A stretch of DNA of 64,000 nucleotides from Candidatus Methanoperedens sp. (GTDB lineage Bacteria; Patescibacteriota; Microgenomatia; UBA12405): NCBI GenBank assembly GCA_035562735.1, contig DATMWB010000003.1, positions 44,232 to 108,231 of the forward strand, read 5' to 3'. A program made the translations under genes and the position numbers. The notes below the pieces were generated by a model that was not told where the DNA came from, ran no database searches, and saw nothing but the letters and a program-made list of their open reading frames with translations. Positions 2,751 to 61,692 of this stretch are shown piece after piece. Within the stretch, counting starts at the first letter, position 1; every line of letters begins with the position of its first letter.

Positions 2751-3806
2751 GTGGATTCGACACTAACTATTTCTGATGCCATTGCCAAATTAAAAGCCAA
2801 AAGTGGAGGTGTCAATTTACCTGATGGCTTGGAAGCCAAGCTTGAGGAAATGTTTGCCCAACTTGAGGTAAATTCTCACTCTGAAACTACCTTCTGGACT
2901 TATTACCAAACAGCCTCAAAATACATTGATTGGATAATTTCTCTTCCTTGGAACAATCGATCCCAAGATATTTTAGATCTTCGTTTTGCCAGCGAGAAAC
3001 TCAACGAAAATCATTTTGGTCTTGATGATGTCAAAGAAAGAATTTTAGAATACATTTCTGTTTTGGCTCTCCAAAAAAATCGTAATCCTGATGTCAGTTT
3101 TCGTGCTCCTATTTTGCTTTTTACTGGTCTAGTCGGTACTGGAAAAACCACCATGGCCAAATCAATTGCTGATGTCATGGGGAGAAAACTTATCCGTATT
3201 CCCTTTGGTGGTTTAGGTGATCCCTTGTATTTACGTGGCCAAAGTCGTCTTCACCCAGAAGCAGAACCGGGTGCTATTATTAGAGCTTTATCTCAGTGTC
3301 AAACAAGAAACCCAGTTATTTTACTAGATGAAATAGATCGTGTCGCTGACGATGCTCTAAATACAATTATGGGTGTTCTAGTTGAATTACTTGATCCAGA
3401 GCAAAATGCCCACTTTACTGATCATTATATTGATTATCCCTTCGATTTATCCGAAGCATTTTTCGTTGCTACATGTAACAATACAACCCGTATAGCTACG
3501 GCAGTTATGGATCGTCTTGAAGTCATTCAGATGCCATCATATACCGATGAAGAAAAAATCGCTATTGGACAAGACTATATTTTCCCAAAAGCCTTAAAAG
3601 ATTCTGGATTAACCCCCGACGAATTAATAATCAAGGAAAATGTTTGGCTTGGAGTTGTGAGACCATTGGGTTTTGACGCTGGTGTAAGAACTTTAAAAAG
3701 AAATATTGAAGGACTCTGTCGAAAAGCTGCTGCCATGGTTCTTGCTGGTACAAAGCAGGTTGTAATCGATGAAACTAACATTAAAAAATTTATACCCCAG
3801 TGGTAA
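2751..3806 (+). CDS. Lon-type AAA+ ATPase module without a protease domain (GTG start)
   Basis: It aligns along its length to the central region of Lon (HFGLDDVKERILEYISV…ILLFTGLVGTGKTTMAKSIA…VILLDEIDRV…LDPEQNAHFTDHY…ATCN…MDRLEVIQMPSYTDEEK…AGVRTL). The ORF stops before any S16 peptidase Ser-Lys region and has no LON N-terminal domain. Confidence 0.7.
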   Translation: MDSTLTISDAIAKLKAKSGGVNLPDGLEAKLEEMFAQLEVNSHSETTFWTYYQTASKYIDWIISLPWNNRSQDILDLRFASEKLNENHFGLDDVKERILEYISVLALQKNRNPDVSFRAPILLFTGLVGTGKTTMAKSIADVMGRKLIRIPFGGLGDPLYLRGQSRLHPEAEPGAIIRALSQCQTRNPVILLDEIDRVADDALNTIMGVLVELLDPEQNAHFTDHYIDYPFDLSEAFFVATCNNTTRIATAVMDRLEVIQMPSYTDEEKIAIGQDYIFPKALKDSGLTPDELIIKENVWLGVVRPLGFDAGVRTLKRNIEGLCRKAAAMVLAGTKQVVIDETNIKKFIPQW

Positions 3807-3810
3807 AAAT

Positions 3811-4248
3811 ATGAAAAATACAATCATTGGTCTTATTTTAGGTTTAATTATCGCCATGTGGGCATTTTATTTGTATACCCAAAAACCAAAAATAACCACA
3901 TCATTACCTCCGGCTACACCCACAACTGCAGAAATTTCGGAGATCCCGGAAAATGTAATATCTGATGACGATTTAATTAGACAAGCCCTTGCGGACAAAT
4001 ATAACAAGGACCTTTCTGACGTCACTTATACATCTTCACAAAATGATGGTACTCACGCCTCAGGCGGTGTCAAGTTTTCTGGAGACATTGCTGGTGCTTG
4101 GGTGTTAGCCGCTAAAGATGATGGAGTCTGGAAAATTGTCCAAGATGGCAACGGTGTAATAATGTGCGAAATTGTTGCCCCATATGACTTTCCTGTTTCA
4201 ATGGTTGCCGAGTGTGTTGATAAAAACGGTAAACTCATAAAATATTAA
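3811..4248 (+). CDS. Hypothetical membrane-anchored protein
   Basis: There is an ATG at 3811 just after the Lon-like stop. It has an N-terminal TM helix (IIGLILGLIIAMWAFYLY) and an extracytoplasmic domain with no recognised family. The track ORF begins at 3769 and overlaps the upstream gene. Confidence 0.45.
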   Translation: MKNTIIGLILGLIIAMWAFYLYTQKPKITTSLPPATPTTAEISEIPENVISDDDLIRQALADKYNKDLSDVTYTSSQNDGTHASGGVKFSGDIAGAWVLAAKDDGVWKIVQDGNGVIMCEIVAPYDFPVSMVAECVDKNGKLIKY

Positions 4249-4250
4249 TT

Positions 4251-5165
4251 ATGAACAAAAAGGAAATTTATCTTTCACTTACACTGTTGGCCTTGGCTTT
4301 TGTCATCCTACTAACTACCCTTCTACCTTATCATCGGGAAAACCCAACCCCCAGTCCGAGTATTATTTCCCAACCGAGTGCTATACCCACCCCTTCCTTT
4401 TCTCCCATTATTATCTTATCCCCAAATATTTCAAAGCCATTAACCTCACCCCTCAAATTAATTGGTCTGATTGACAAAAGTTGGGTTTTTGAGGGATCTT
4501 TTCCCATAGAGCTTCTTGATAATCAAAATAAAAGCTTATTCAAAAGTACTGCTTCGGCTCCAAACTGGTTAGAGGAAGAATCAAAATACACCAGCTTTAT
4601 GGCTGTATTTAATTTTGTCACTTATAGTCCAAGTGGATTTGTCCAAGTGAAAAATTCTAATCCCAGTGGCCTTCCAGAAAACGACAAAAGAGTCACTATT
4701 CCGGTGACTTTCGATTCTACTTCAGTTACAAAAACAGGTTTAAAAACTTATAAAAACAATCAATATGGTTTTGAATTTGAAATACCAATAGACTGGGAAG
4801 CAAAAGAGAAACCACCATATCATACTTATTTTGGAAAAATAGGGGAAAGTTATTATAATGAGGGTTCAGTTTCAGATGGTGAAATTGTTATTTCAGTTGA
4901 GAAAAAAAATCCAAACGAAAATCTAGAAACAATTTTTAAGTCATACTACGATGGATTTTTAAAAAATTCAGATACAACTATTCAGAAAATTAAATTAGGA
5001 GGAATCGATGCTGGCTATTTTGATTATTTTGACGAGACTGCTTTTACCATCAAAGATAATTATAGAATTACAATCCAAGTCACTGCATATCCCCAAATAG
5101 ATCCCAGTGTTTATTCAAAAGATATTTTTCAACAAATTCTTTCAACTTTTAAATTTACAAAATAA
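4251..5165 (+). CDS. Hypothetical N-terminally anchored secreted protein (FKFT-motif paralog family)
   Basis: It has an N-terminal TM/signal anchor, a Pro/Ser-rich linker, an internal NxYGFEFEIPIDWE motif and a C-terminal …FQQILSTFKFTK. It resembles ORFs 24570-25220 and 25224-25988. Confidence 0.5.
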   Translation: MNKKEIYLSLTLLALAFVILLTTLLPYHRENPTPSPSIISQPSAIPTPSFSPIIILSPNISKPLTSPLKLIGLIDKSWVFEGSFPIELLDNQNKSLFKSTASAPNWLEEESKYTSFMAVFNFVTYSPSGFVQVKNSNPSGLPENDKRVTIPVTFDSTSVTKTGLKTYKNNQYGFEFEIPIDWEAKEKPPYHTYFGKIGESYYNEGSVSDGEIVISVEKKNPNENLETIFKSYYDGFLKNSDTTIQKIKLGGIDAGYFDYFDETAFTIKDNYRITIQVTAYPQIDPSVYSKDIFQQILSTFKFTK

Positions 5166-5740: not shown

Positions 5741-5758
5741 CCAGTTTAACTATTTATC

Positions 5759-5779
5759 TTTTTTACTATTTATCTATTA
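5759..5779 (+). promoter_or_regulatory. 21-bp motif TTTTTTACTATTTATCTATTA upstream of rnj (identical copy upstream of fusA)
   Basis: It is an exact 21-mer match to 42296-42316. Both copies end about 20-25 nt before an ATG. Confidence 0.35.
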
Positions 5780-5798
5780 AACTATTTATCAAAAAAAT

Positions 5799-7571
5799 AT
5801 GATTAATCAAAAAACATATCAAAAACCAGCTTTAAATCCAGCTCTTCAAAAGGATTTCACGAGGACACCTCATATACAAAATTTATCTAATGGTCAAGAT
5901 GCTGTCCGCATTTCTTCACTAGGCGCTTTTGGAGATGTAACTCAAAACATGTTCGTTTACGAGTTTGCCCCACGAGGGGACTTCTCAAAATCTCAAATCA
6001 TTATCGTCGATTGTGGTGTTGGTTTTCCTGAAGAAGACGCCTTTGGTGTTGATCTTCAAATTCCTGATACAACTTATTTGCTAGACAAAAAAGAACGGAT
6101 ATTGGGAATTTTTATTACCCATGGTCATGAAGACCATATTGGGGCTATTCGTTACGTATTACCAATATTAGGCAACAATATCCCCATCTTTGCTCCAAAA
6201 TTAGCAGCTGCCTTTATTGAATCGCGACTAGCAGAAAACCAAATTCGAGCCTCGGTTTCTGTCTATCAATCTGGAGATATTTTCAACAAAGGTCCTTTTA
6301 CTATCGAACCCATTAGAGTGACCCATTCAATTCCAGACACTCATCATTTTGCAATCACCACTCCAATTGGCGTTTTTTACCACGGATCTGATTTTAAGTT
6401 TGACGTCTTTCCGATTGACAACAAACCTGCAGAACTGAAAAAAATTGCCAATGCCGGTAACAAAAAAGTTATCGCTTTAATGTCTGATTCGCTAGGTGCC
6501 GACCACGAAGGTTATTCTCCGTCTGAACGAGATATTGCTGAAAACTTTAAGCATCAAATAGTCAACGCCAAGGGGCGAGTCTTTGTTACTTCTATTAGTA
6601 GTAATATTGTCCGTTGGGGTCAGGCTATCGAGTATGGAAAATCAACAGGTAGAAAAATTTGTGTTGTTGGTTATTCTGTCGATAAAGCTATCAATATTGC
6701 CAAAGAATTAGGTTATATTAAATTGGCTGATACCGATATGATTGCCCCAGAACGAGCCAAAAATTTCCCCGACAACAAGCTTTTATTTTTAGTTGCCGGT
6801 TTTGCCGGTCAACCCGATTCGGCATTGAGCAAAATGGTTATGGGTAAGCATCGTGTCAAAATAAAATCAGGTGACAAAGTAATCTTTTCCTCTCCAGACT
6901 ATATTCCTGGAACTACCAGTAATATCTACGAAATGATCGATATTCTTTCCAAAATGGGTGCTGATGTTGCCTATGGAGAAAAAGAAGAACTTCATGTCTC
7001 CGGTCATGGTTACCAAAAAGAACACGCCCTTCTGATGACCCTAACTAACCCTCGATATCTATTACCAATTGGTGGTAATTTCCGACATGTAAAAAGCTAT
7101 TTTTCAATGGCCAAAATAATGGGATTTACTGACGACCAATTTATTACCCCAGATTTCGATTCTGCAGTTACCTTTTATGCTAATGGTAAAGTTGATACCA
7201 ATTTTCATATTCCCATGCATAAGGTTCTAATTGATGGTCTTGGAATAGGTGATGTCGGTGCCACAGTTCTTCGCGATAGGAAAACTTTAGCTGAAGATGG
7301 AATGTTTAGTGTAGTTCTAATGGTCAATAAAGAAGATGGCACAATGTTTAAGGAACCAGTAATTCTCTCTCGGGGTTTTGTGTTTATGAAAGAAAACACC
7401 GATCTTATTGATTATCTAAAAGAAGAGGTTAAAAGACGCTTCGGAGAAGTTACTAGCAAGCCTGCCAACTTTGATTATATTAGAACTGAACTTCAGGCCT
7501 ATCTCGAAAACATTATCAAGGAAAAAACTGGTCGCGAACCCATGGTTCTACCACTGGTTATTGAGGTCTAA
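5799..7571 (+). CDS. rnj: Ribonuclease J (metallo-beta-lactamase/beta-CASP RNase)
   Basis: 590 aa with the HGHEDHIGA motif, beta-CASP region and RNase J C-terminal domain. Confidence 0.85.
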   Translation: MINQKTYQKPALNPALQKDFTRTPHIQNLSNGQDAVRISSLGAFGDVTQNMFVYEFAPRGDFSKSQIIIVDCGVGFPEEDAFGVDLQIPDTTYLLDKKERILGIFITHGHEDHIGAIRYVLPILGNNIPIFAPKLAAAFIESRLAENQIRASVSVYQSGDIFNKGPFTIEPIRVTHSIPDTHHFAITTPIGVFYHGSDFKFDVFPIDNKPAELKKIANAGNKKVIALMSDSLGADHEGYSPSERDIAENFKHQIVNAKGRVFVTSISSNIVRWGQAIEYGKSTGRKICVVGYSVDKAINIAKELGYIKLADTDMIAPERAKNFPDNKLLFLVAGFAGQPDSALSKMVMGKHRVKIKSGDKVIFSSPDYIPGTTSNIYEMIDILSKMGADVAYGEKEELHVSGHGYQKEHALLMTLTNPRYLLPIGGNFRHVKSYFSMAKIMGFTDDQFITPDFDSAVTFYANGKVDTNFHIPMHKVLIDGLGIGDVGATVLRDRKTLAEDGMFSVVLMVNKEDGTMFKEPVILSRGFVFMKENTDLIDYLKEEVKRRFGEVTSKPANFDYIRTELQAYLENIIKEKTGREPMVLPLVIEV

Positions 7572-15403: not shown

Positions 15404-17278
15404 ATGAACGCACGGGATTTGAAAAACAAATTTGTTGATTTTTTCAAAAACTATCAACATGCCGAAATTCCCAGTGCTTCAATTGTTCCCGAAAACGATC
15501 CCACCACTCTTTTCATTTCTGCTGGCATGCACCCCCTCGTTCCTTATCTCTTAGGTCAACCCCATCCTCTAGGCAAAAGGTTAGTTGATGTTCAAAAATG
15601 TATTCGTACTGGCGATATCGATGAAGTCGGTGATACCTATCATCACACTTTTTTTGAAATGCTTGGCAACTGGTCTCTTGGTGACTATTTCAAAAAAGAG
15701 ATGATTGCTTTTTCCTATGAGTTTTTAACCAACAAAAAATATCTAGGTCTTGATGTATCAAAATTAGCTTTCAGCTGTTTTGCTGGTGATCAAGACGCTC
15801 CTCGTGACGAAGAAAGTTTCAATTTTTGGCGTGAACAGGGAGTTAGTCCCAGCAGAATTGCCTATTTACCTAAAAAAAATAATTGGTGGGGTCCCGCTGG
15901 AGCTACTGGCCCCTGTGGTCCAGATACCGAAATGTTTTATTGGACAGGGGAGAGTGAAGCACCCGAAAAATTTGATGCCAATGATAGTCGTTGGTTGGAA
16001 ATTTGGAATGACGTTTTTATGCAGTACAACAAAAAAGCCAATGGTACCTTTGAAGCACTAAAAGCTCCAAACGTTGATACAGGTATGGGGGTTGAGCGAA
16101 CTACTGCAGTTTTATCGGGCTTATCGGATAATTATCAAACCTACATTTGGCAACCAATAATTCAAAAAATAGAGGAAATCTCTGGGAAAAAATATGTCGC
16201 TGCAATGAATAATCCCGTCATTGCGAGTAGCACATCCGTCATTGCGAGCGAAGCGAAGCAATCTTCTAAAAAAATCGCCACCTTATCTTCTACTTCTAAC
16301 GATGACGCCCGAAGTTTTCGCATTATCGCTGACCATATAAAGGCTGCAGTTTTTATGATTGCCGACAGTGTTGAACCCTCAAACAAAGAGCGTGGTTATG
16401 TTCTCCGTCGTCTTATTAGACGTAGTATCCGTCAAGGTAAAATTTTGGGAATAGAGCAAAATTTTTGCTCTATTATTGCCACTACTGTTTTAGACAATCA
16501 AAACAATTATGCTGGTACCTATTCCGAACTAGATTCAAACAAAAATAAAATTTTAGAGACTTTAGAGGCTGAAGAAACCAAATTTCGTCGCACTCTCAAC
16601 AAGGGTCTTAGTGAAATTACAAAATTAATTATCCGTCAAAAAAGTGTCTCCGGAAAAGAAGCTTTTGACTTATACCAATCCTTTGGTTTCCCCGTCGAAA
16701 TGATAGAGGAAGAATTAAGAAGAAACAATTTATCTTTAGATATTGCCGAGTTTAACCGTCTAAAAGAGGAACATCAAAAACTATCTCAAACTCTTTCTGC
16801 CGGAAAATTCAAGTCAGGTTTAGCTGATAATTCCGAAATTATCACCAAATATCACACTACTACCCATCTAATGCACGCCGCTCTTAGAAAAGTTTTGGGT
16901 GAGCATGTTGAACAAAGTGGTTCCAATATTACCTCAGAAAGACTTCGTTTTGATTTTTCCCATCCGCAAAAAGTTGCCGAAGATCAGCTAAAAGAAGTCG
17001 AAAAAATAGTCAATGAACAAATTAATGCCTCACTTTCCGTCACTGTGGAATCTATGAAATTTACTGATGCCCAAAAATCTGGTGCCTTAGCCTTTTTTGG
17101 CGCTAAATACCCAGAAATTGTTACTGTCTATACAGTCGGTGACCCAAAAAGTTTTTTTTCAAAGGAAGTCTGTACCGGCCCCCATGTCGATAATGTTGGG
17201 AAATTAGGTCATTTTGAAATTCAAAAAGAAGAATCCGCAGGCAGTGGCAAGCGTCGGATTTATGCTATTCTTAAGTAA
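15404..17278 (+). CDS. alaS: Alanyl-tRNA synthetase, short form lacking the C-Ala domain
   Basis: Met at 15404 aligns to the AlaRS N-terminus (…FVDFFKNYQHAEIPSASIVPENDPTTLF…). The catalytic and editing domains are present (HxxxH …CTGPHV). The ORF ends right after the editing domain. Confidence 0.88.
   Translation: MNARDLKNKFVDFFKNYQHAEIPSASIVPENDPTTLFISAGMHPLVPYLLGQPHPLGKRLVDVQKCIRTGDIDEVGDTYHHTFFEMLGNWSLGDYFKKEMIAFSYEFLTNKKYLGLDVSKLAFSCFAGDQDAPRDEESFNFWREQGVSPSRIAYLPKKNNWWGPAGATGPCGPDTEMFYWTGESEAPEKFDANDSRWLEIWNDVFMQYNKKANGTFEALKAPNVDTGMGVERTTAVLSGLSDNYQTYIWQPIIQKIEEISGKKYVAAMNNPVIASSTSVIASEAKQSSKKIATLSSTSNDDARSFRIIADHIKAAVFMIADSVEPSNKERGYVLRRLIRRSIRQGKILGIEQNFCSIIATTVLDNQNNYAGTYSELDSNKNKILETLEAEETKFRRTLNKGLSEITKLIIRQKSVSGKEAFDLYQSFGFPVEMIEEELRRNNLSLDIAEFNRLKEEHQKLSQTLSAGKFKSGLADNSEIITKYHTTTHLMHAALRKVLGEHVEQSGSNITSERLRFDFSHPQKVAEDQLKEVEKIVNEQINASLSVTVESMKFTDAQKSGALAFFGAKYPEIVTVYTVGDPKSFFSKEVCTGPHVDNVGKLGHFEIQKEESAGSGKRRIYAILK
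16216..16264 (+). repeat. Interspersed repeat copy A (partial unit plus full unit) inside the alaS coding sequence, in frame
   Basis: CGTCATTGCGAGtagcacatc + CGTCATTGCGAGCGAAGCGAAGCAATCT. It translates as VIASSTSVIASEAKQS within a loop insertion relative to canonical AlaRS. Confidence 0.7.
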
Positions 17279-20775: not shown

Positions 20776-21698
20776 TGAAAAAACTTTTTTTTGTTTTTCC
20801 CCTAATTTTATTGCTTTTATTTGGACTATACATTTATAGTTTAACCTTTGCTCCCTCATCTGATACCACCAAAAAAGTTTTTGTAATAAATCAAGGAGAA
20901 CCTCTTCTGACCATTGCTTCAAGACTGGAAAAATTAAACTTTGTCCGTAGTCGATACGCCTTTATTGTCTATAGTCGATTGTCGGGTTTAAACACTCAAA
21001 TCAAAGCTGGTACTTTTTATCTTACTTCGTCAGAAAAACTTATCGAGCAAGCCCAAAGATTAACCAAGGGGGGTAGTACCGACTATTGGTTTAAAATTAT
21101 CCCCGGGTCTCGAATTGAAGAATTTTCCCCAGATACTGAATTTACCTCTGCTGCCCTTGGTCTTGAAGGTCAGCTTTTTCCTGATAGCTACTTAATTCCC
21201 AAGTATTACGTATCTTCGCAGATTCTTGACTTAATTTTAAAGAATTTTGAAGATAAGCAACTCGAAGCAAAAGGTAATTCTATCACTCCTTTTTCCGATT
21301 CCGAAGTGCTAGTTTTAGCTTCACTTTTAGAACGTGAAGCCAAAACATTGGCTGATAAAAAAATTATCGCTGGAATAATCAAAAATCGCCTAGACGTAGG
21401 CATGCCTCTTCAAATTGATGCCACTGTCCAATACGCCAAAGACTCTTTAGGCAACCCTGAAAAATACTGGAAGCCAATAAGCAAAGCCGATCTAAGCATT
21501 ATTTCTCCTTATAACACCTATAAAAACAAGGGATTACCCCCATCACCAATTTGTAATCCCGGTTTTGATTCACTAATTGCGGCCTATCATCCAACAGAAT
21601 CTAATTATGTCTACTACATCAATGATAATCAGGGAATTATGCATTACGCCAAAAATTTAGAAGAGCACAACACCAACGTGGCTAAATATTTAAGATGA
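20775..21698 (+). CDS. mltG: Endolytic murein transglycosylase MltG (YceG family)
   Basis: It has an N-terminal TM helix and YceG-like motifs (…KAGTFYL…, …LQIDATVQYA…). Confidence 0.8.
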   Translation: MKKLFFVFPLILLLLFGLYIYSLTFAPSSDTTKKVFVINQGEPLLTIASRLEKLNFVRSRYAFIVYSRLSGLNTQIKAGTFYLTSSEKLIEQAQRLTKGGSTDYWFKIIPGSRIEEFSPDTEFTSAALGLEGQLFPDSYLIPKYYVSSQILDLILKNFEDKQLEAKGNSITPFSDSEVLVLASLLEREAKTLADKKIIAGIIKNRLDVGMPLQIDATVQYAKDSLGNPEKYWKPISKADLSIISPYNTYKNKGLPPSPICNPGFDSLIAAYHPTESNYVYYINDNQGIMHYAKNLEEHNTNVAKYLR

Positions 21699-22261
21699 GA
21701 CAAGCCAAGCTAGTAAAAAGAGAAATTTTATTTGATAAATACGGTAAAAAGTTTATCGTTGATAATTTAGAGCAGCTTGATGGTAAGCCCGACTTTTGGG
21801 CTTATGTCTCCGCCCCCAGAGGTTCAATCATTGTCGCTATCGATAAAGACAAAAACTTAATTCTTGTTCATCAATATCGATATACCTTAAAAGATTTTAC
21901 ATACGAAAACCCTGCTGGAGCTGCCGATAAAAATGAAAATCTTTTAGAAACCGCCAATAGAGAGCTTTTTGAAGAAACAGGCTACAAGTCGAATCAATTT
22001 ATAAATCTTGGAAATTTTCATGATCTCCCCAACGAAACAGATCACCAATGTCAAATATTTTTAGCACTAAATTGCCAATTTATAGAAAAACCCGCCCTTG
22101 ATCCCTTTTCCGAAATATATTGTGAAATGACGACCGAAATTCATCCCTTTATTGATATTTACAATTCACTTGGTCAAGATACCTCACTTATAAAAAGCTC
22201 CGAACATACCGCTGCCATTTTCCTCGCCCATCGCTATCTCTCTACTCATAACTTACTTTAA
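21695..22261 (+). CDS. NUDIX hydrolase
   Basis: It carries the Nudix box (…GAADKNENLLETANRELFEETGY…). Confidence 0.7.
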   Translation: MRQAKLVKREILFDKYGKKFIVDNLEQLDGKPDFWAYVSAPRGSIIVAIDKDKNLILVHQYRYTLKDFTYENPAGAADKNENLLETANRELFEETGYKSNQFINLGNFHDLPNETDHQCQIFLALNCQFIEKPALDPFSEIYCEMTTEIHPFIDIYNSLGQDTSLIKSSEHTAAIFLAHRYLSTHNLL

Positions 22262-22266
22262 AAAAA

Positions 22267-22307
22267 CGTCATTGCGAGGAGCATTTGCTGAAGCGATGTG
22301 GCAATCT
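22267..22307 (+). repeat. Interspersed repeat copy B (divergent) between convergent gene ends
   Basis: CGTCATTGCGAGgagcatttgctgaagcgatgtgGCAATCT. Confidence 0.55.
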
Positions 22308-33527: not shown

Positions 33528-34010
33528 ATGTCAAGAAAAGGTCAAATAAAAATTAGAGAAGTCCTACCCGACACTGAATACAAGAGTGTTGTAGTTACCA
33601 AGCTTATCAATCGTGTTATGTATGCCGGCAACAAAAATGCTGCTCAAAAACAGGTTTATGAAGCATTGCAACTTTTTAAAAAAGAAAGTAAAAGTGAAGA
33701 TATTATTACTACTCTCGAACAAGCACTTGATAATTTGAAACCAAAAGTTGAGGTTCGTCCTCGTCGTATTGGTGGCGCTGTTTATCAAGTTCCCACACCT
33801 GTGCGAGGTAGTCGTCAATATTCCCTTGCCATTCGCTGGTTGGTAACTTCAGCTAGAAAAAGACCCAACAAACAATATCATTCCTTTGCCCTAAAGTTAG
33901 CTGCCGAACTCTTAGCCACCCTAAACAATGAGGGCTCTTCTATTGCTAAGCGTCAAGAAATTGAGAGAATGGCCGAAGCCAATCGCGCCTTTGCTCATTT
34001 GCGTTGGTAA
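33528..34010 (+). CDS. rpsG: 30S ribosomal protein S7
   Basis: 160 aa, typical S7. Confidence 0.95.
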   Translation: MSRKGQIKIREVLPDTEYKSVVVTKLINRVMYAGNKNAAQKQVYEALQLFKKESKSEDIITTLEQALDNLKPKVEVRPRRIGGAVYQVPTPVRGSRQYSLAIRWLVTSARKRPNKQYHSFALKLAAELLATLNNEGSSIAKRQEIERMAEANRAFAHLRW

Positions 34011-34027: not shown

Positions 34028-34063
34028 TTCGTCATTGCGAGGAGGTACTCCGACGAAGCAATC
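34028..34063 (+). repeat. Interspersed repeat copy C (between the rpsG stop and a terminator)
   Basis: TCGTCATTGCGAGgaggtactccgacGAAGCAATCT. Confidence 0.7.
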
Positions 34064-34074
34064 TATTTTAAAAT

Positions 34075-34102
34075 AAAAAAGTCCCCTGTATAGGGGACTT
34101 TT
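34075..34102. terminator. Rho-independent terminator after rpsG (bidirectional-type hairpin)
   Basis: AAAAAGTCCCCT-gtat-AGGGGACTTTTT, a 12-bp stem with flanking A and T runs. Confidence 0.75.
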
Positions 34103-34136
34103 TAGTTATTTGTTCTATCATGTATCTGATATATAT

Positions 34137-40698: not shown

Positions 40699-41934
40699 TC
40701 AAATTCTCTTCCCCACTCTCTCTCCCTCTCTCACAGCATAATTAATACCCCTGTCTTCCGGATATATTTGTGCAAAGTTAACATGAATAACTTTATTTTC
40801 TACATTAGTTTTTCTCTCCGTCTTGTCATTATAATTTTTGGTAACTATATGTTGTGCATATTTAAATCTAAAAACATGTTTTTCAATAAGTCCTTTTTCA
40901 CTAAATTCAGGAAAAATTTTCTTTAAATAGTCAAAAAAATCTTTTTCAATTAAAGAGTCTTTGCATGTAAAATATTTGTGATTTTGGGGCAAATAAGTCC
41001 CCATATAATAAATATTTTTTCCGCCATAATTCTCTGTCCCCATTAGGTTTGTATGTTGAATAAAGGCCAAAAAAGGGGAGTTGATATCATTGATATTATG
41101 CCAATAATAAGGACTTAAACTCTGTTTTGAAGAAAAAACCATCGTCACCGCTCCCAAATAATCAATACCATCTAATGGCGCCGAGCTAATAATTCTATCG
41201 AATCCGTCATCGCGAGTGTAATCACGAAGCAATCTTTCTGGATTGGTCTCAATATTCGTCTTTATCTCTCCTCCCAACTCTTTTATTCTTTTTTCCAATT
41301 CATCAATAATTATTTGAAATCCTCCTTCCATATAACCTAGATACTCTTTCCCCCTTTCACTCGAATTACCTCTTGTATGAATTCTTGCCCACATCCATGC
41401 CATTGAAATATCTTGATATCTATCGTTAAATTTACCTTTTAATAGTGGCTCCCAGACTACTTTATAAGCATTTTCCCCACACCATTTTCTCATCCACTCA
41501 TAAGCCAAAACATCTTCAAATTTCTTCCAATTCTTTTCTCTTTCTAGATAGATTTTAACTAGTCCCAATCTCAACTTATCAAATAAATTTAGAGGTTTAA
41601 ATTTTAATAAATCTATTACCCCTGCAAACGGATATATAGTTCCACTGTAATATAGAGCAGTTTTACTCTCAAACCATTTTAACTTATTTTCCAAACCCAA
41701 CTCCTTGATCAAAGCAATTATTTCTTTGTCAGTTTTAAAAATGTGATGATAAGCTTTCTCTAAATTCGTCCCTTCAATTTTAAATCCCCCCAACAATCCA
41801 CCCAAACTATCACTTCTCTCAAAAATTATTACCTTATGACCCTTTTGAAGCATTCTGTATCCCACCACCAAACCTGTTATTCCTCCGCCGATTATTGCAA
41901 TTTTTTGTTTTTTCACTTCCAAATTATATCTCAA
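40699..41934 (-). CDS. FAD-dependent oxidoreductase (amine-oxidase / UDP-galactopyranose-mutase-like Rossmann family)
   Basis: It has the dinucleotide-binding motif IAIIGGGITGLVVG…E…GGL at the N-terminus and is about 410 aa. It sits in a sugar-nucleotide context. Confidence 0.6.
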   Translation of the reverse strand: MRYNLEVKKQKIAIIGGGITGLVVGYRMLQKGHKVIIFERSDSLGGLLGGFKIEGTNLEKAYHHIFKTDKEIIALIKELGLENKLKWFESKTALYYSGTIYPFAGVIDLLKFKPLNLFDKLRLGLVKIYLEREKNWKKFEDVLAYEWMRKWCGENAYKVVWEPLLKGKFNDRYQDISMAWMWARIHTRGNSSERGKEYLGYMEGGFQIIIDELEKRIKELGGEIKTNIETNPERLLRDYTRDDGFDRIISSAPLDGIDYLGAVTMVFSSKQSLSPYYWHNINDINSPFLAFIQHTNLMGTENYGGKNIYYMGTYLPQNHKYFTCKDSLIEKDFFDYLKKIFPEFSEKGLIEKHVFRFKYAQHIVTKNYNDKTERKTNVENKVIHVNFAQIYPEDRGINYAVREGERVGKRI

Positions 41935-42264: not shown

Positions 42265-42300
42265 CAAAAAAAGCGGGTGTCTTGCCCGTTTTTATTTTTT
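42265..42300. terminator. A-run / GCGGG…CCCG hairpin / T-run (bidirectional-type)
   Basis: AAAAAAGCGGGTGTCTTGCCCGTTTTTATTTTTT. Confidence 0.45.
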
Positions 42301-42316
42301 TACTATTTATCTATTA
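42296..42316 (+). promoter_or_regulatory. Second copy of the 21-bp motif TTTTTTACTATTTATCTATTA, upstream of fusA
   Basis: Identical to 5759-5779. Confidence 0.35.
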
Positions 42317-42341
42317 GTCTATTCAACTAATTATCTAAAAA

Positions 42342-44453
42342 ATGGCCGACGCAATTCAAGTCACTAAAAACCGTGTAGTTACCATGGATAAAGTCCGAAA
42401 CATCGGTATTATCGCTCATATCGATGGTGGAAAAACTACCACCACTGAACGTCTTCTTTTTTATACTGGAAAAATTCACAAAATTGGTTCTGTTGATGAA
42501 GGTACTACCACAACTGATTCAATGGTCCAAGAAAAGGAGAGGGGAATTACCATCCAATCCGCCTGTATTACCACCTTTTTTAAGAATTATCGTATCAATA
42601 TTATTGATACTCCAGGGCATGTTGATTTTACCGCTGAAGTTGAACGTTCACTTCGTGTCTTAGATGGTGCCATCATGATTTTTGACGGAAATGCCGGTGT
42701 TCAAGCCCAATCTGAAACTGTGTGGCGACAAGCCGACAAGTATCAAGTTCCTCGCCTCGCCTTTGTCAACAAAATGGACAAGGTTGGAGCATCCTTCCAA
42801 GGAACTCTTGATTCTATTACTCAAAAATTACGTTGTCCTATCGTTCCAGTTGTCTTACCTATTGGTGAAGAGCATGACTTTATGGGTGTTATTGATCTCA
42901 TGGAAATGAAGATGATTGTTTATGATAAGGATGAAGAAGGTATGGAATTTACCACCAAAGATGTTACTCCAGAATTTATAGAAGCTGCCACCAAAGCCCG
43001 CGCTGCCATGGTCGAAAAAATTGCCGGTGAAGACGAAACGCTCATGGAAAAATTCCTCAATGATGAGGAGATTTCGGTTCCAGAGCTTAAAGCTGTCCTA
43101 AGAAAAGCCACTATTGATAGAAAATTATTCCCCGTCTTTTGTGGTGCTGCTTGGAGAAACAAGGGTATTCATCCTATTCTAGACGCTATCGTTGACTACT
43201 TACCTTCTCCAATTGATTTACCTCCAACAATAGGATTTGACGTTACTACTGGCGATAAAATTTCTCGTAAACCAGAAAACAAAGAACCTTTTTCCGGACT
43301 TTTATTTAAAGTTCAATCAGATCCACATGTTGGTACCTTGTCCTATGTCCGTATTTACTCAGGTTCCATAAAAACTGGTCAAGAAGTTTACAATGCTACC
43401 AAGCAAAAAAGCGAAAGAATCGGTCGTTTACTCCTAATGCACGCTGATAAGCGTGAAGGTATAGAAGAAGGTTATGCAGGTGAAATTATTGCCTGTATTG
43501 GTTTAAAAGAATCAATAACTGGAGACACCTTGTGCGATAAATCAGCCCCAATCTCTCTTTCTCCAATCCAGTTTTCCGAACCGGTTATTTCCCTTTCTAT
43601 TGAGCCAGAAACTGCCGATGATCAGGAAAAAATGGGCGCAGCCCTCAATCGTTTAACCTCAGAAGATCCCACCTTTAGAGTTTCATACAACCATGAAACT
43701 GGCCAAACAATTATTGCTGGTATGGGTGAACTATACCTCGAAATTATTGTTGATCGTTTAAAGCGCGAATTTGGAGTTGCCGTTAAAACAGGCGCCCCAC
43801 AGGTTGCTTATCGTGAAACAATTTCTCAAAATGCCGAAGGTGAAGGTAAATATATCCACCAATCCGGTGGTCATGGTCAGTATGGTCATTGTAAAGTCCG
43901 TGTTGAACCCAAGAATCGCGGTGAAGGTATTGAGTTTGTCAATGCTATCAAGGGTGGTGTTATTCCTGCCAACTTTATTCCCGCTATTGAAAAAGGTGTT
44001 CGTGAAACTCTCCAAAAAGGTATTATTGCTGGTTACCCATGTACTGACATTAAAGTTTCAGTTTACGACGGTTCTTACCACGAAGTTGATTCTTCAGAAA
44101 TGTCATTCAAATTGGCCGGTGCTTACGCCATCAAAGATGCTTTTGGACTAGCTAGACCTCTCATCCTCGAACCTATCATGAAGTTTGAAGTTGCTACTCC
44201 TTCCGAATTTTTAGGAACAGTAATTGGTGACCTTTCTTCCAGACGCGGTCAAATTGCTGGTACCACTGAGGCTTTTGGTTTTAGTACCATCGAAGCCACC
44301 ATTCCTCTAGAGGCTGTTCGTGGTTACGCCACCGTTATCCGCTCTCTAACTCAAGGACGCGGTTCATTCTATATGGAACCAAGCCACTACGACCCAGTTC
44401 CTCGTGATATTCAGGAAAAACTAACCATCAAGACTACTGATAAAAAAGAATAA
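42342..44453 (+). CDS. fusA: Elongation factor G
   Basis: It has G-domain motifs (AHIDGGKTT, DTPGH, NKMD) and all five EF-G domains. Confidence 0.95.
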   Translation: MADAIQVTKNRVVTMDKVRNIGIIAHIDGGKTTTTERLLFYTGKIHKIGSVDEGTTTTDSMVQEKERGITIQSACITTFFKNYRINIIDTPGHVDFTAEVERSLRVLDGAIMIFDGNAGVQAQSETVWRQADKYQVPRLAFVNKMDKVGASFQGTLDSITQKLRCPIVPVVLPIGEEHDFMGVIDLMEMKMIVYDKDEEGMEFTTKDVTPEFIEAATKARAAMVEKIAGEDETLMEKFLNDEEISVPELKAVLRKATIDRKLFPVFCGAAWRNKGIHPILDAIVDYLPSPIDLPPTIGFDVTTGDKISRKPENKEPFSGLLFKVQSDPHVGTLSYVRIYSGSIKTGQEVYNATKQKSERIGRLLLMHADKREGIEEGYAGEIIACIGLKESITGDTLCDKSAPISLSPIQFSEPVISLSIEPETADDQEKMGAALNRLTSEDPTFRVSYNHETGQTIIAGMGELYLEIIVDRLKREFGVAVKTGAPQVAYRETISQNAEGEGKYIHQSGGHGQYGHCKVRVEPKNRGEGIEFVNAIKGGVIPANFIPAIEKGVRETLQKGIIAGYPCTDIKVSVYDGSYHEVDSSEMSFKLAGAYAIKDAFGLARPLILEPIMKFEVATPSEFLGTVIGDLSSRRGQIAGTTEAFGFSTIEATIPLEAVRGYATVIRSLTQGRGSFYMEPSHYDPVPRDIQEKLTIKTTDKKE

Positions 44454-44495: not shown

Positions 44496-44524
44496 TCGTC
44501 ATTGCGAGCGAAGCGAAGCAATCT
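44496..44524 (+). repeat. Interspersed repeat copy D (between the fusA stop and a terminator)
   Basis: TCGTCATTGCGAGCGAAGCGAAGCAATCT. Confidence 0.7.
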
Positions 44525-44534
44525 ATAAAAATCT

Positions 44535-44558
44535 AAACCCGCCGAAGAGGCGGGTTTT
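44535..44558 (+). terminator. Rho-independent terminator after fusA
   Basis: AAACCCGCC-gaaga-GGCGGGTTTT. Confidence 0.75.
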
Positions 44559-44560
44559 CA

Positions 44561-44589
44561 TTGACAACCTATAAAATTTGTAATAGATT
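44561..44589 (+). promoter_or_regulatory. Candidate promoter TTGACA-17-TAGATT for the orphan gene between fusA and tuf
   Basis: A perfect -35 TTGACA lies immediately after the terminator, with a 17-nt spacer and a TAGATT -10. Confidence 0.35.
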
Positions 44590-45618: not shown

Positions 45619-45637
45619 AATCTCTATCTTTAACTCT

Positions 45638-45661
45638 AACCCCGCCATTCGGCGGGGTTTT
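45638..45661 (+). terminator. Rho-independent terminator
   Basis: AACCCCGCC-attc-GGCGGGGTTTT. Confidence 0.75.
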
Positions 45662-45844
45662 CATTGACCTGATTTTGTGCTATTATCCATAAATTCAGCG
45701 AATAACCTTTTAGTCTTGTTTTTACCTCCACTTCCATCTTGCGAAGCTGGTGTCTTACTGATACAATTCTAAAGTATTTTTCGCTACAATTAATTGTTAT
45801 TAATTTTCCGCGACAAGCGGATTTTTTAAAAAAAACAAAAACAT

Positions 45845-61134: not shown

Positions 61135-61551
61135 ATGGCAACTCCAAAAACCACCAAAAAAACCGCCAATACTTATGTTTACGCCCTCGGTCGTCGTAAA
61201 TCTGCTGTTGCTACCATCAAATTATTTTCTGGAAAAGGTGATTCAACCATCAACGCTCGAGAAATTAATAAATACTTCCCCTTAACTTTTTCTCGTCTCG
61301 AGCTACCATTCAAAACAACTGGAACGGAAGGAAAATTTCATTTTTCTGCCAAAATTGTTGGCGGTGGAAGAACCGGTCAATTAGCCGCTCTGATTTTAGC
61401 CATATCCCGCGCTCTTAAAAAGGGCAATCCTGACATGACCCTCGCTTTAGCTCAAGCAGGACTTTTGACTGTTGACGCTAGAGTTCGTGAAAGAAGAATG
61501 GTTGGTACCGGCGGTAAAGCTCGTAAACAAAAGCAATCTCCAAAGCGTTAA
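61135..61551 (+). CDS. rpsI: 30S ribosomal protein S9
   Basis: C-terminal …GGKARKQKQSPKR. Confidence 0.92.
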   Translation: MATPKTTKKTANTYVYALGRRKSAVATIKLFSGKGDSTINAREINKYFPLTFSRLELPFKTTGTEGKFHFSAKIVGGGRTGQLAALILAISRALKKGNPDMTLALAQAGLLTVDARVRERRMVGTGGKARKQKQSPKR

Positions 61552-61558
61552 TATTCTT

Positions 61559-61628
61559 GTCATTGCGACCACCTTCGTCATTTTGACTACCTTCGTCATT
61601 GCGAGGAGGTACTCCGACGAAGCAATCT
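61559..61628 (+). repeat. Interspersed repeat copy E (two 18-bp partial units plus a full unit) between the rpsI stop and a terminator
   Basis: GTCATTGCGACCACCTTC | GTCATTTTGACTACCTTC | GTCATTGCGAGgaggtactccgacGAAGCAATCT. Confidence 0.7.
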
Positions 61629-61642
61629 CTCTTAAAACCTCA

Positions 61643-61667
61643 AACCCGCCTCTCCGGCGGGTTTTTT
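61643..61667 (+). terminator. Rho-independent terminator after rpsI
   Basis: AAACCCGCC-tctcc-GGCGGGTTTTTT. The stem is the same as in the fusA terminator, with a complementary loop. Confidence 0.8.
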
Positions 61668-61692
61668 AAATTTTTCATAGTAAAATAAACTC

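Follow-up and report, generated by a model that had tools for sequence, protein, structure and literature searches.

Repetitive extragenic palindromic sequences (REPs) have been divided into two superfamilies, tagged GTAG and CGTC (Di Nocera, De Gregorio & Rocco 2013, BMC Genomics 14:522, PMC3733652). The CGTC REPs carry their tag as an unpaired terminal tetranucleotide, with TGTC and CCTC as variants. They have a stem that starts with AT and a 3-nt tail, are found mainly as head-to-head dimers with the tags outside, and lie just downstream of open reading frames (ORFs) and also within genes, without a known transposase. Their families CGTC-1 to CGTC-4 have a stem of 8-9 bp, a loop of 4-5 nt and the tail consensus CCA, and the Rickettsia palindromic elements (RPEs) RPE-4 and RPE-6 of R. 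conorii are CGTC-4 and CGTC-1 REPs, respectively. Intragenic REPs have been described in many species, among them X. oryzae, E. litoralis and S. alaskensis, where tRNA synthetase genes carry them, and the genes affected also include uvrA, recB and polA; known in-frame peptides are VIPAKAGI and VIAGLDPAIH...ARVKPAHD, and for recB in Xanthomonas a coincidence of the insertion site was reported that is similar to the one described below (all PMC3733652). Here we describe an insert in alaS, the gene for alanyl-tRNA synthetase (AlaRS), on a 64,000-nt stretch of DNA deposited as Candidatus Methanoperedens sp. (GenBank assembly GCA_035562735.1, contig DATMWB010000003.1, positions 44,232 to 108,231), which as a whole is referred to as the window. 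The insert is very likely a palindromic, non-autonomous repeat that belongs to the CGTC-tagged REPs and landed in frame in a loop of the enzyme.

The RPEs (Ogata et al. 2000, cited in PMC3733652) share with this insert that they are selfish palindromic repeats found in frame in essential genes, in loops that tolerate them, but they differ in stem sequence, host and host lifestyle, RPE-1 is much longer, and the insert probably belongs to none of the Rickettsia sequence families. The initial annotation of this DNA had called the insert analogous to RPEs. The likeness is closer than an analogy, since the published equivalence of RPE-4 and RPE-6 with CGTC REPs, on which the link rests, implies the same tag, AT start, head-to-head dimer and V-I...x-D frame, although the stem of the element differs from the CGTC-1 peptide signature VIPAKAGI. 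REPINs and their REP-associated tyrosine transposases (RAYTs; Bertels & Rainey 2011, PMC3116915) are similar in that an inverted REP doublet gives one long hairpin, and a typical RAYT gene flanked by REPs is present in a sister genome (L127); however, those REPs are of the GTAG type and not the CGTC element of alaS. Miniature inverted-repeat transposable elements with open frames inside genes (e.g. in Coxiella, PMC5896051) are also short and non-autonomous, have terminal inverted repeats and can add peptide segments, whereas the 71-nt element is made of REP units, with no target-site duplication or parent insertion sequence seen.

Results

The in-frame insert in alaS

The alaS gene (15404..17278, + strand) encodes a protein of 624 aa (Pfam tRNA-synt_2c, E 1.9e-129, and also tRNA_SAD) with a class II core, a helical domain and an editing domain; the C-Ala domain was not found in this AlaRS, which stops after the editing domain. 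The initial annotation had correctly quoted the sequence and the alaS frame at 16216-16264, which is read as ...NNPVIASSTSVIASEAKQSSKK... The insertion of about 30 aa that it had proposed is real but was sized too small, as the whole insert covers 37 codons (16196..16306, + strand, 111 nt, residues 265-301, peptide VAAMNNPVIASSTSVIASEAKQSSKKIATLSSTSNDD) and holds several REP units. That a dispersed repeat lies in frame in alaS was well supported. The 26-mer GTCATTGCGAGCGAAGCGAAGCAATC was found twice in the window, at 16238 and 44498, compared to 0.00 copies expected from shuffled sequences; the core identity of 26/26 (16238-16263 and 44498-44523) extends to 28/28 (16237-16264 and 44497-44524). 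With at most one mismatch, the 11-mer head GTCATTGCGAG had 8 copies in the window compared to 0.5 expected, all on the + strand (16217, 16238, 22268, 34031, 41206, 44498, 61559 and 61595).

The HMMER match to A. aeolicus AlaRS (1riq) was broken at query residues 266/304, where the crystal chain has 6 residues. Alignment of the 120 closest orthologues, from Shapirobacteria, proposed earlier as a check of lineage specificity, showed that 86 of them have only 6-9 residues between GKKY and (F/I)RIIADH and hence no insert. The orthologues without the DNA repeat were also without the peptide, so that the observation named earlier as a refutation was not made. In an AlphaFold2 model (61 sequences, mean pLDDT, i.e. 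predicted local distance difference test, of 82.5) residues 269-298 had a pLDDT <50, and a coil without secondary structure at 261-297 was placed between the helices 250-260 and 298-320 (block-mean pLDDT ~93-97). The model thus agrees with the earlier expectation of a loop, predicted to be disordered. The insert lies where the aminoacylation core joins the helical tRNA-recognition domain and not beside the editing domain, so that the earlier placement between the catalytic and editing regions has to be corrected.

Filled and empty alleles

Orthologue DNA was obtained for nine genes, every one in conserved synteny, and the insert was present in four independent assemblies (NCBI, JGI, ENA, Logan). 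In the empty alleles L004 and L006, AAAAAATAT is followed by 6-8 codons. The filled alleles L001 and L003 carry 69 nt immediately 3' of AAAAAATAC, which consist of GTCATTGCGAGCGAAGCGAAGCAATCT-TCTGAAA-AGATCGCCACGTCGTCTTCGACTCCTCGCGATGAC, and the window and L002 have this type of block plus an additional 42 nt on its 5' side. Measured from GTC to GAC the insert is 69 nt long in L001 and L003 and 111 nt in the window, and the frame is preserved. TA...TA was seen as a flank in L001 only, and inverted termini of 11-12 nt are present.

The intact REP unit of the window (16237..16264, + strand) has a CGTC tag, the structure ATTGC-GA-[GC GAA GC]-GAA-GCAAT, a CT tail and the peptide VIASEAKQS. It forms a head-to-head dimer, tags outward, with a second, inverted and decayed unit (16272..16307, - strand, peptide KIATLSSTSNDD). 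This second unit is intact as AGATCGCCACGTCGTCTTCGACTCCTCGCGATGAC(G) in L001, L002 and L003, with CGTCATCGCGAGGAG...GGCGATCT as the reverse complement, and has changed from CCTCGCGATGAC to TCTAACGATGAC in the window, where the long hairpin has become weaker. The extra 5' block (16196..16236, not assigned to a strand) consists of a truncated inverted REP end GTCGCTGCAATGA that faces a truncated REP head CGTCATTGCGAG (16216-16227) in a small hairpin. The block is confined to the window and the L002 lineage; L001 and L003 have the simple 69-nt dimer only. In the predicted fold of 16196-16312, GCTGCAATGA is base-paired with TCATTGCGAGTAGC. The insert has head duplications 21 nt apart, similar to a pair of heads 18 nt apart in a REP cluster at 61558-61628.

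Structure and family of the repeat

Each REP unit is built from a CGTC/TGTC tag, an outer helix ATTGC/GCAAT, a conserved 5'-GA/5'-GAA internal loop, a variable mini-hairpin closed by G...C and a short tail. All complete units in the window have the CGTC tag, with TGTC on one truncated head (61558), and of 171 copies found in other genomes 106 have C and 57 have T in front of GTC. ATTGC...GCAAT, with A-T pairs at stem positions 1 and 2, was found in every copy. Head-to-head pairs outnumbered tail-to-tail pairs by 31 to 4, and the insert in alaS has the head-to-head form, too. Copies in the window have the tail CT(N). Elsewhere GCAATC is most often followed by CAG, as in 63/171 copies (...AAT-CCA-G).

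The element was assigned to the CGTC REPs because of its tag, AT start, dimer form and location. Common to both are the unpaired tag CGTC/TGTC, AT at the start of the stem, perhaps the short 3' tail, mostly head-to-head dimers, sites just 3' of ORFs, in-frame V-I...x-D copies and the lack of a linked transposase, and VIASEAKQS...PRDD has the same frame as the published VIPAKAGI and VIAGLDPAIH...ARVKPAHD. Differences are the bipartite stem (5 bp, the GA/GAA internal loop and the variable mini-hairpin), the tail in the window, which is CT and not CCA, and the host, a bacterium of the Candidate Phyla Radiation (CPR), a group outside the 2013 sampling. Judged by these features, the element would be a structural variant of the four published CGTC families or an unlisted member.

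Of 100 unique inner segments, 96 end in C, and they form many different complementary stems (median z -1.85 compared to shuffled inner segments). Because the inner segments vary in this way and still pair, the conserved feature appears to be the hairpin shape and not the inner sequence. The intact 71-nt dimer, as found in L001, was predicted to fold with -18.2 kcal/mol as DNA (z -3.0) and -30.5 kcal/mol as RNA (z -3.9). Five of the six frames of the single unit and four of the six of the dimer are free of stops. A K-turn was considered for the GA/GAA internal loop and rejected on register, as the commonest variant is without a 3-nt bulge and the pairing of the other variant is off by one. When the whole window was compared with Rfam at gathering thresholds, no match was obtained.

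Evolution of the insert

Outside the insert, dN/dS (the ratio of nonsynonymous to synonymous substitution rates) of alaS was 0.06-0.11 and dS 0.9-2.1, which shows strong purifying selection on the gene. The insert itself, by comparison, had a dN/dS of 0.35-1.6 and a dS of 0-0.30. Between L001 and L003 it was identical at 66/69 nt, whereas the genes and the 150-nt flanks were 69-70% identical (binomial P about 9e-8). Because of this very low dS and the 66/69 identity in genes that are only 70% identical, the insert behaves as DNA and not as protein. Such a pattern is compatible with copies of one master element having inserted recently and independently, with gene conversion, or with constraint at the nucleotide level, but not with inheritance of a neutral peptide loop.

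One site, several classes of insert

Inserts were found at the same alaS position in 34/120 orthologues and belong to at least seven classes. CGTC dimers are present in six orthologues, and L129 has a CGTC heterodimer of another sequence type, of which one unit is canonical, its stem being 8 bp and its loop 4 nt long (TGTC ATTCTGAC GTAT GTCAGAAT). A GTAG-type REP dimer is present in L138 (8356-8446; tat|GTAGAGACG...CGTCTCTAC), directly after the Tyr codon as is the CGTC dimer of the window, and it has an intergenic copy on the same contig (2221-2248). A hairpin type with the peptide LPCQGEV was found in 12 orthologues, a PVKGGG type in two, a non-palindromic DDFYIKDGKQCWVDV block in nine, and other inserts in three. 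Neither the window nor the 21.8 kb of L005 yielded further copies of the LPCQGEV type, which is therefore a candidate repeat only. On a neighbour-joining AlaRS tree the classes were scattered among insert-free sisters, and the insertion points of the different types were 0-4 nt apart. One codon position of alaS has thus been used recurrently by different repeats.

The non-palindromic insert encodes 16 aa, (G)DxxDDFYIKDGKQCWVDV (L128 10787-10852, P0008, P0022, P0068, P0074, P0101, P0105, P0113 and P0117). It is patchy on the AlaRS tree and not REP-like.

Other copies in the window

Intergenic copies of the REP were found at four loci, all on the + strand and all 7-45 nt past a stop codon. A single REP at 22267..22307 lies 7 nt after the stop of the gene 21695-22261, the L005 orthologue of which matches Pfam NUDIX. 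Another, at 34030..34064 (inner hairpin GGAG GTA CTCC), lies 21 nt past the stop of a gene ending at 34010 (rpsG by eye), and is followed by a terminator hairpin. The copy identical to the alaS unit (44497..44524) lies 45 nt past the stop of a gene ending at 44453 (fusA by eye), upstream of a terminator. The REP cluster at 61558..61628, after a gene ending at 61551 (rpsI by eye), holds the truncated heads TGTCATTGCGAC and CGTCATTTTGAC, 18 nt apart, and a complete unit at 61594-61628, and is followed by a terminator.

A single REP is also located at 41205..41235 (+ strand) inside the gene of an FAD/NAD(P) oxidoreductase (40699-41934, - strand), where it is antisense and in frame (peptide PERLLRDYTRDDG). 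The corresponding loop is short in most orthologues, and some carry other REP- or hairpin-derived peptides; LLRSARNDG, LPPRELGTSLEEGRLK and FNPSKSPFDKGDF (hairpin AAGTCCCCCTTTGACAAGGGGGACTT) were observed.

All six REP loci of the window, including the copy in the minus-strand gene, share one chromosomal orientation. GC skew is negative over the whole window and 68/74 ORFs are on the + strand. The uniform orientation fits strand-specific insertion via single-stranded DNA, in a small sample and with the ORFs also mostly on the + strand. GTAG REPs were searched in the window and none were found.

The REP and the terminator form a recurring 84-nt unit with 77% identity between 34028-34111 and 61592-61675, and the terminator stems of the two differ (GTCCCC.../GGGGAC and CCCGCC.../GGCGGG). 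A conserved terminator hairpin followed by TTTTCATTGAC was seen at 44529-44565 and 45632-45668, where TTGAC may be the -35 box of the next gene. AT-rich arrays with an 8-nt period (TTTACTATTTATCTATTA...) are located at 5745-5800 and 42282-42345, just 5' of two genes with starts at 5799 (RNase J by L005 synteny) and 42342 (fusA by eye), and these arrays may have a promoter or regulatory role.

The same repeat family in other genomes

The sequence pattern of the unit was detected in more than 120 DNA stretches from many groups, namely Alpha-, Gamma- and Deltaproteobacteria (many of them Bradyrhizobium), Chloroflexi, Bacteroidota, Cyanobacteria, Zixibacteria, Planctomycetota, Patescibacteria and others, and the alaS 26-mer was the commonest variant in this multi-phylum scan. 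The head-to-head heterodimer of the alaS block in L001 and L003 (unit 1 ATTGC/GCAAT, an A-rich spacer, and unit 2 ATCGC/GCGAT) also occurs outside alaS, as a metagenome scan for the dimer junction gave eight loci; 0/8 of these were in alaS, so that no additional alaS alleles were obtained. In-frame REP dimers of this family were found in uvrA of L120 (VIASKAKQSHSTGSANNGIATSPLAPRNDN) and in guaA (GMP synthase) of L096 (VIARPRSGAAISKNSEIASEGAPRNDD). In-frame insertion into a synthetase had been thought well documented only for Rickettsia. This does not hold, since in-frame REPs were already published in many species and genes including tRNA synthetases (PMC3733652), and the uvrA and guaA copies are further cases.

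The uvrA and guaA copies echo the published enrichment of REPs in repair genes. Several long open frames over REPs in high-GC genomes (L028, L053) were judged spurious, and L008 and L034 were rejected as in-frame copies because the REP lies upstream of the real start.

Host lineage

The AlaRS of the window is identical to P0001 (100%), and its closest matches are in Candidatus Shapirobacteria (CPR/Patescibacteria). Both AlaRS and the oxidoreductase are named Candidatus Methanoperedens sp. in the source record, and the closest named homologues of both are bacterial (Shapirobacteria/Patescibacteria), while the synteny around alaS is conserved with the same group. Because the homologues and the synteny are bacterial, the contig was probably mis-binned.

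Discussion

In this study, we found that the alaS insert of the window very likely stems from the insertion of a CGTC-tagged REP dimer. Another origin would be homologous recombination, in which an allele or segment was transferred between Shapirobacteria after one ancient insertion, without transposition in this lineage. The scattering of insert types on the AlaRS tree and the near-identity of the 69-nt insert in distant alaS backgrounds would be expected from such transfer. However, the 150-nt flanks are not raised in identity (69% for L001 and L003, equal to the whole gene), the insertion points of the types are 0-4 nt apart, and at least seven unrelated insert classes occupy the one site, which makes this origin distinctly unlikely. 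It is also conceivable that the insert has been co-opted, with a hairpin or peptide loop that functions in alaS mRNA stability or translation or in contact with tRNA or a partner, which would explain the nucleotide conservation. An insert dS far under that of the gene, the -30 kcal/mol RNA hairpin of the intact dimer and the intergenic REPs in the 3' untranslated regions of four + strand genes, three of them translation genes by eye, agree with a function. We consider it very unlikely all the same, as 86/120 orthologues live without the insert, the hairpin of the window is decaying, the dN/dS of the insert is 0.35-1.6, the loop is predicted to be disordered and unrelated repeats are found at the same site.

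The remaining explanations are hardly credible. An ordinary lineage-specific loop with a coincidental likeness to the repeat, or an assembly artefact, would have the general variability of the loop in its favour and nothing else; it is refuted by the 26/26 nt match elsewhere with 0 expected, by the four independent assemblies that carry the insert, and by the absence of the peptide from repeat-free orthologues. Equally close to nil is the probability that the mature enzyme lacks the block because it is cut out of the transcript or the protein, in the manner of a mini-intron or intein. A hairpin former at a domain junction would suit such removal, but the block is only 69-111 nt long and has no Rfam match, features of inteins or introns were not seen, and the frame is kept in all carriers, with 4/6 dimer frames open as expected if it is translated.

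Several observations weigh against the insertion of a mobile CGTC REP, for which we nevertheless have the highest confidence. The filled and empty alleles revealed neither a consistent target-site duplication nor a precise footprint of excision, and downstream of the insert there is a further difference of 3-5 codons between them. The insert may owe its low dS to selection on the nucleotides or to gene conversion and not to recent insertion. The element does not share the stem of 8-9 bp and the loop of 4-5 nt of the published families, and the single REP unit has no stable hairpin by nearest-neighbour energies (z about 0). No obvious transposase was noticed by eye among the translated ORFs of the window, on which no scan with a library of hidden Markov models was run. 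Only one RAYT-like gene was seen, in L127 (Y1_Tnp 30.6 bits; REP_Tyr_transpos E 1.8e-12, below the curated cut-off), and the REPs on either side of it are of the GTAG and not the CGTC type. Finally, we infer translation of the insert solely from the intact frame.

With regard to the L127 gene, the region 3634-4646 of this sister Shapirobacteria contig is a REPtron, in which GTAG REPs (GTAGAGACGTTGCATGCAACGTCTCTAC) lie on both sides of the RAYT-like Y1 gene (3723-4367), and a copy at 4048-4075 lies in frame within the transposase gene itself.

For the insertion of the CGTC REP into alaS we propose that a REPIN-like dimer of ~71 nt would have inserted right after the Tyr264 codon, 3' of AAAAAATA. 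Mobilisation may have involved a single-stranded hairpin intermediate and a Y1/HUH-type or other enzyme. The dimer could have survived in an essential gene by its frame-keeping length, its stop-poor frames and its landing in a variable loop that is predicted to be disordered, and its translation would give a linker rich in Ser, Ala and Lys, the protein sequence of which is little constrained. In the lineage of the window, truncated REP units would have been gained later on the 5' side, and decay of the 3' unit would have weakened the long hairpin. The hotspot presumably reflects target preference together with selection that retains only insertions in permissive loops. A more far-reaching idea, which is rather unlikely, is that the loop after Tyr264 and the oxidoreductase loop are true landing pads, where a target feature, for instance the A6TA tract or a local structure of single-stranded DNA, guides CGTC REPs, GTAG REPs and other hairpins to one and the same nucleotide; REP insertion would then be a major ongoing source of loop diversity in the proteins of CPR bacteria with small genomes, and the + orientation would stem from insertion into one particular strand at the replication fork.

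These data do not reveal a new kind of element, as the phenomenon belongs to a published class. New are the CPR host, the bipartite variant of the stem and a single codon position at which repeats of different families have inserted time and again; a literature search on REP or RAYT combined with CPR or Patescibacteria gave nothing relevant. In-frame insertion of REP- and RPE-like repeats is hereby extended to the Candidate Phyla Radiation, with its small and tightly packed genomes. The repeats also account for odd low-complexity peptides (VIASEAKQS, RLLRxARNDG, DCFASLAMT) and for spurious 'hypothetical proteins' in metagenome annotations. The alaS site is a natural experiment in which one codon position of an essential synthetase has received at least seven classes of insert, with closely related empty alleles for comparison, and it could help to define the target choice and the mobilising enzyme of CGTC REPs.

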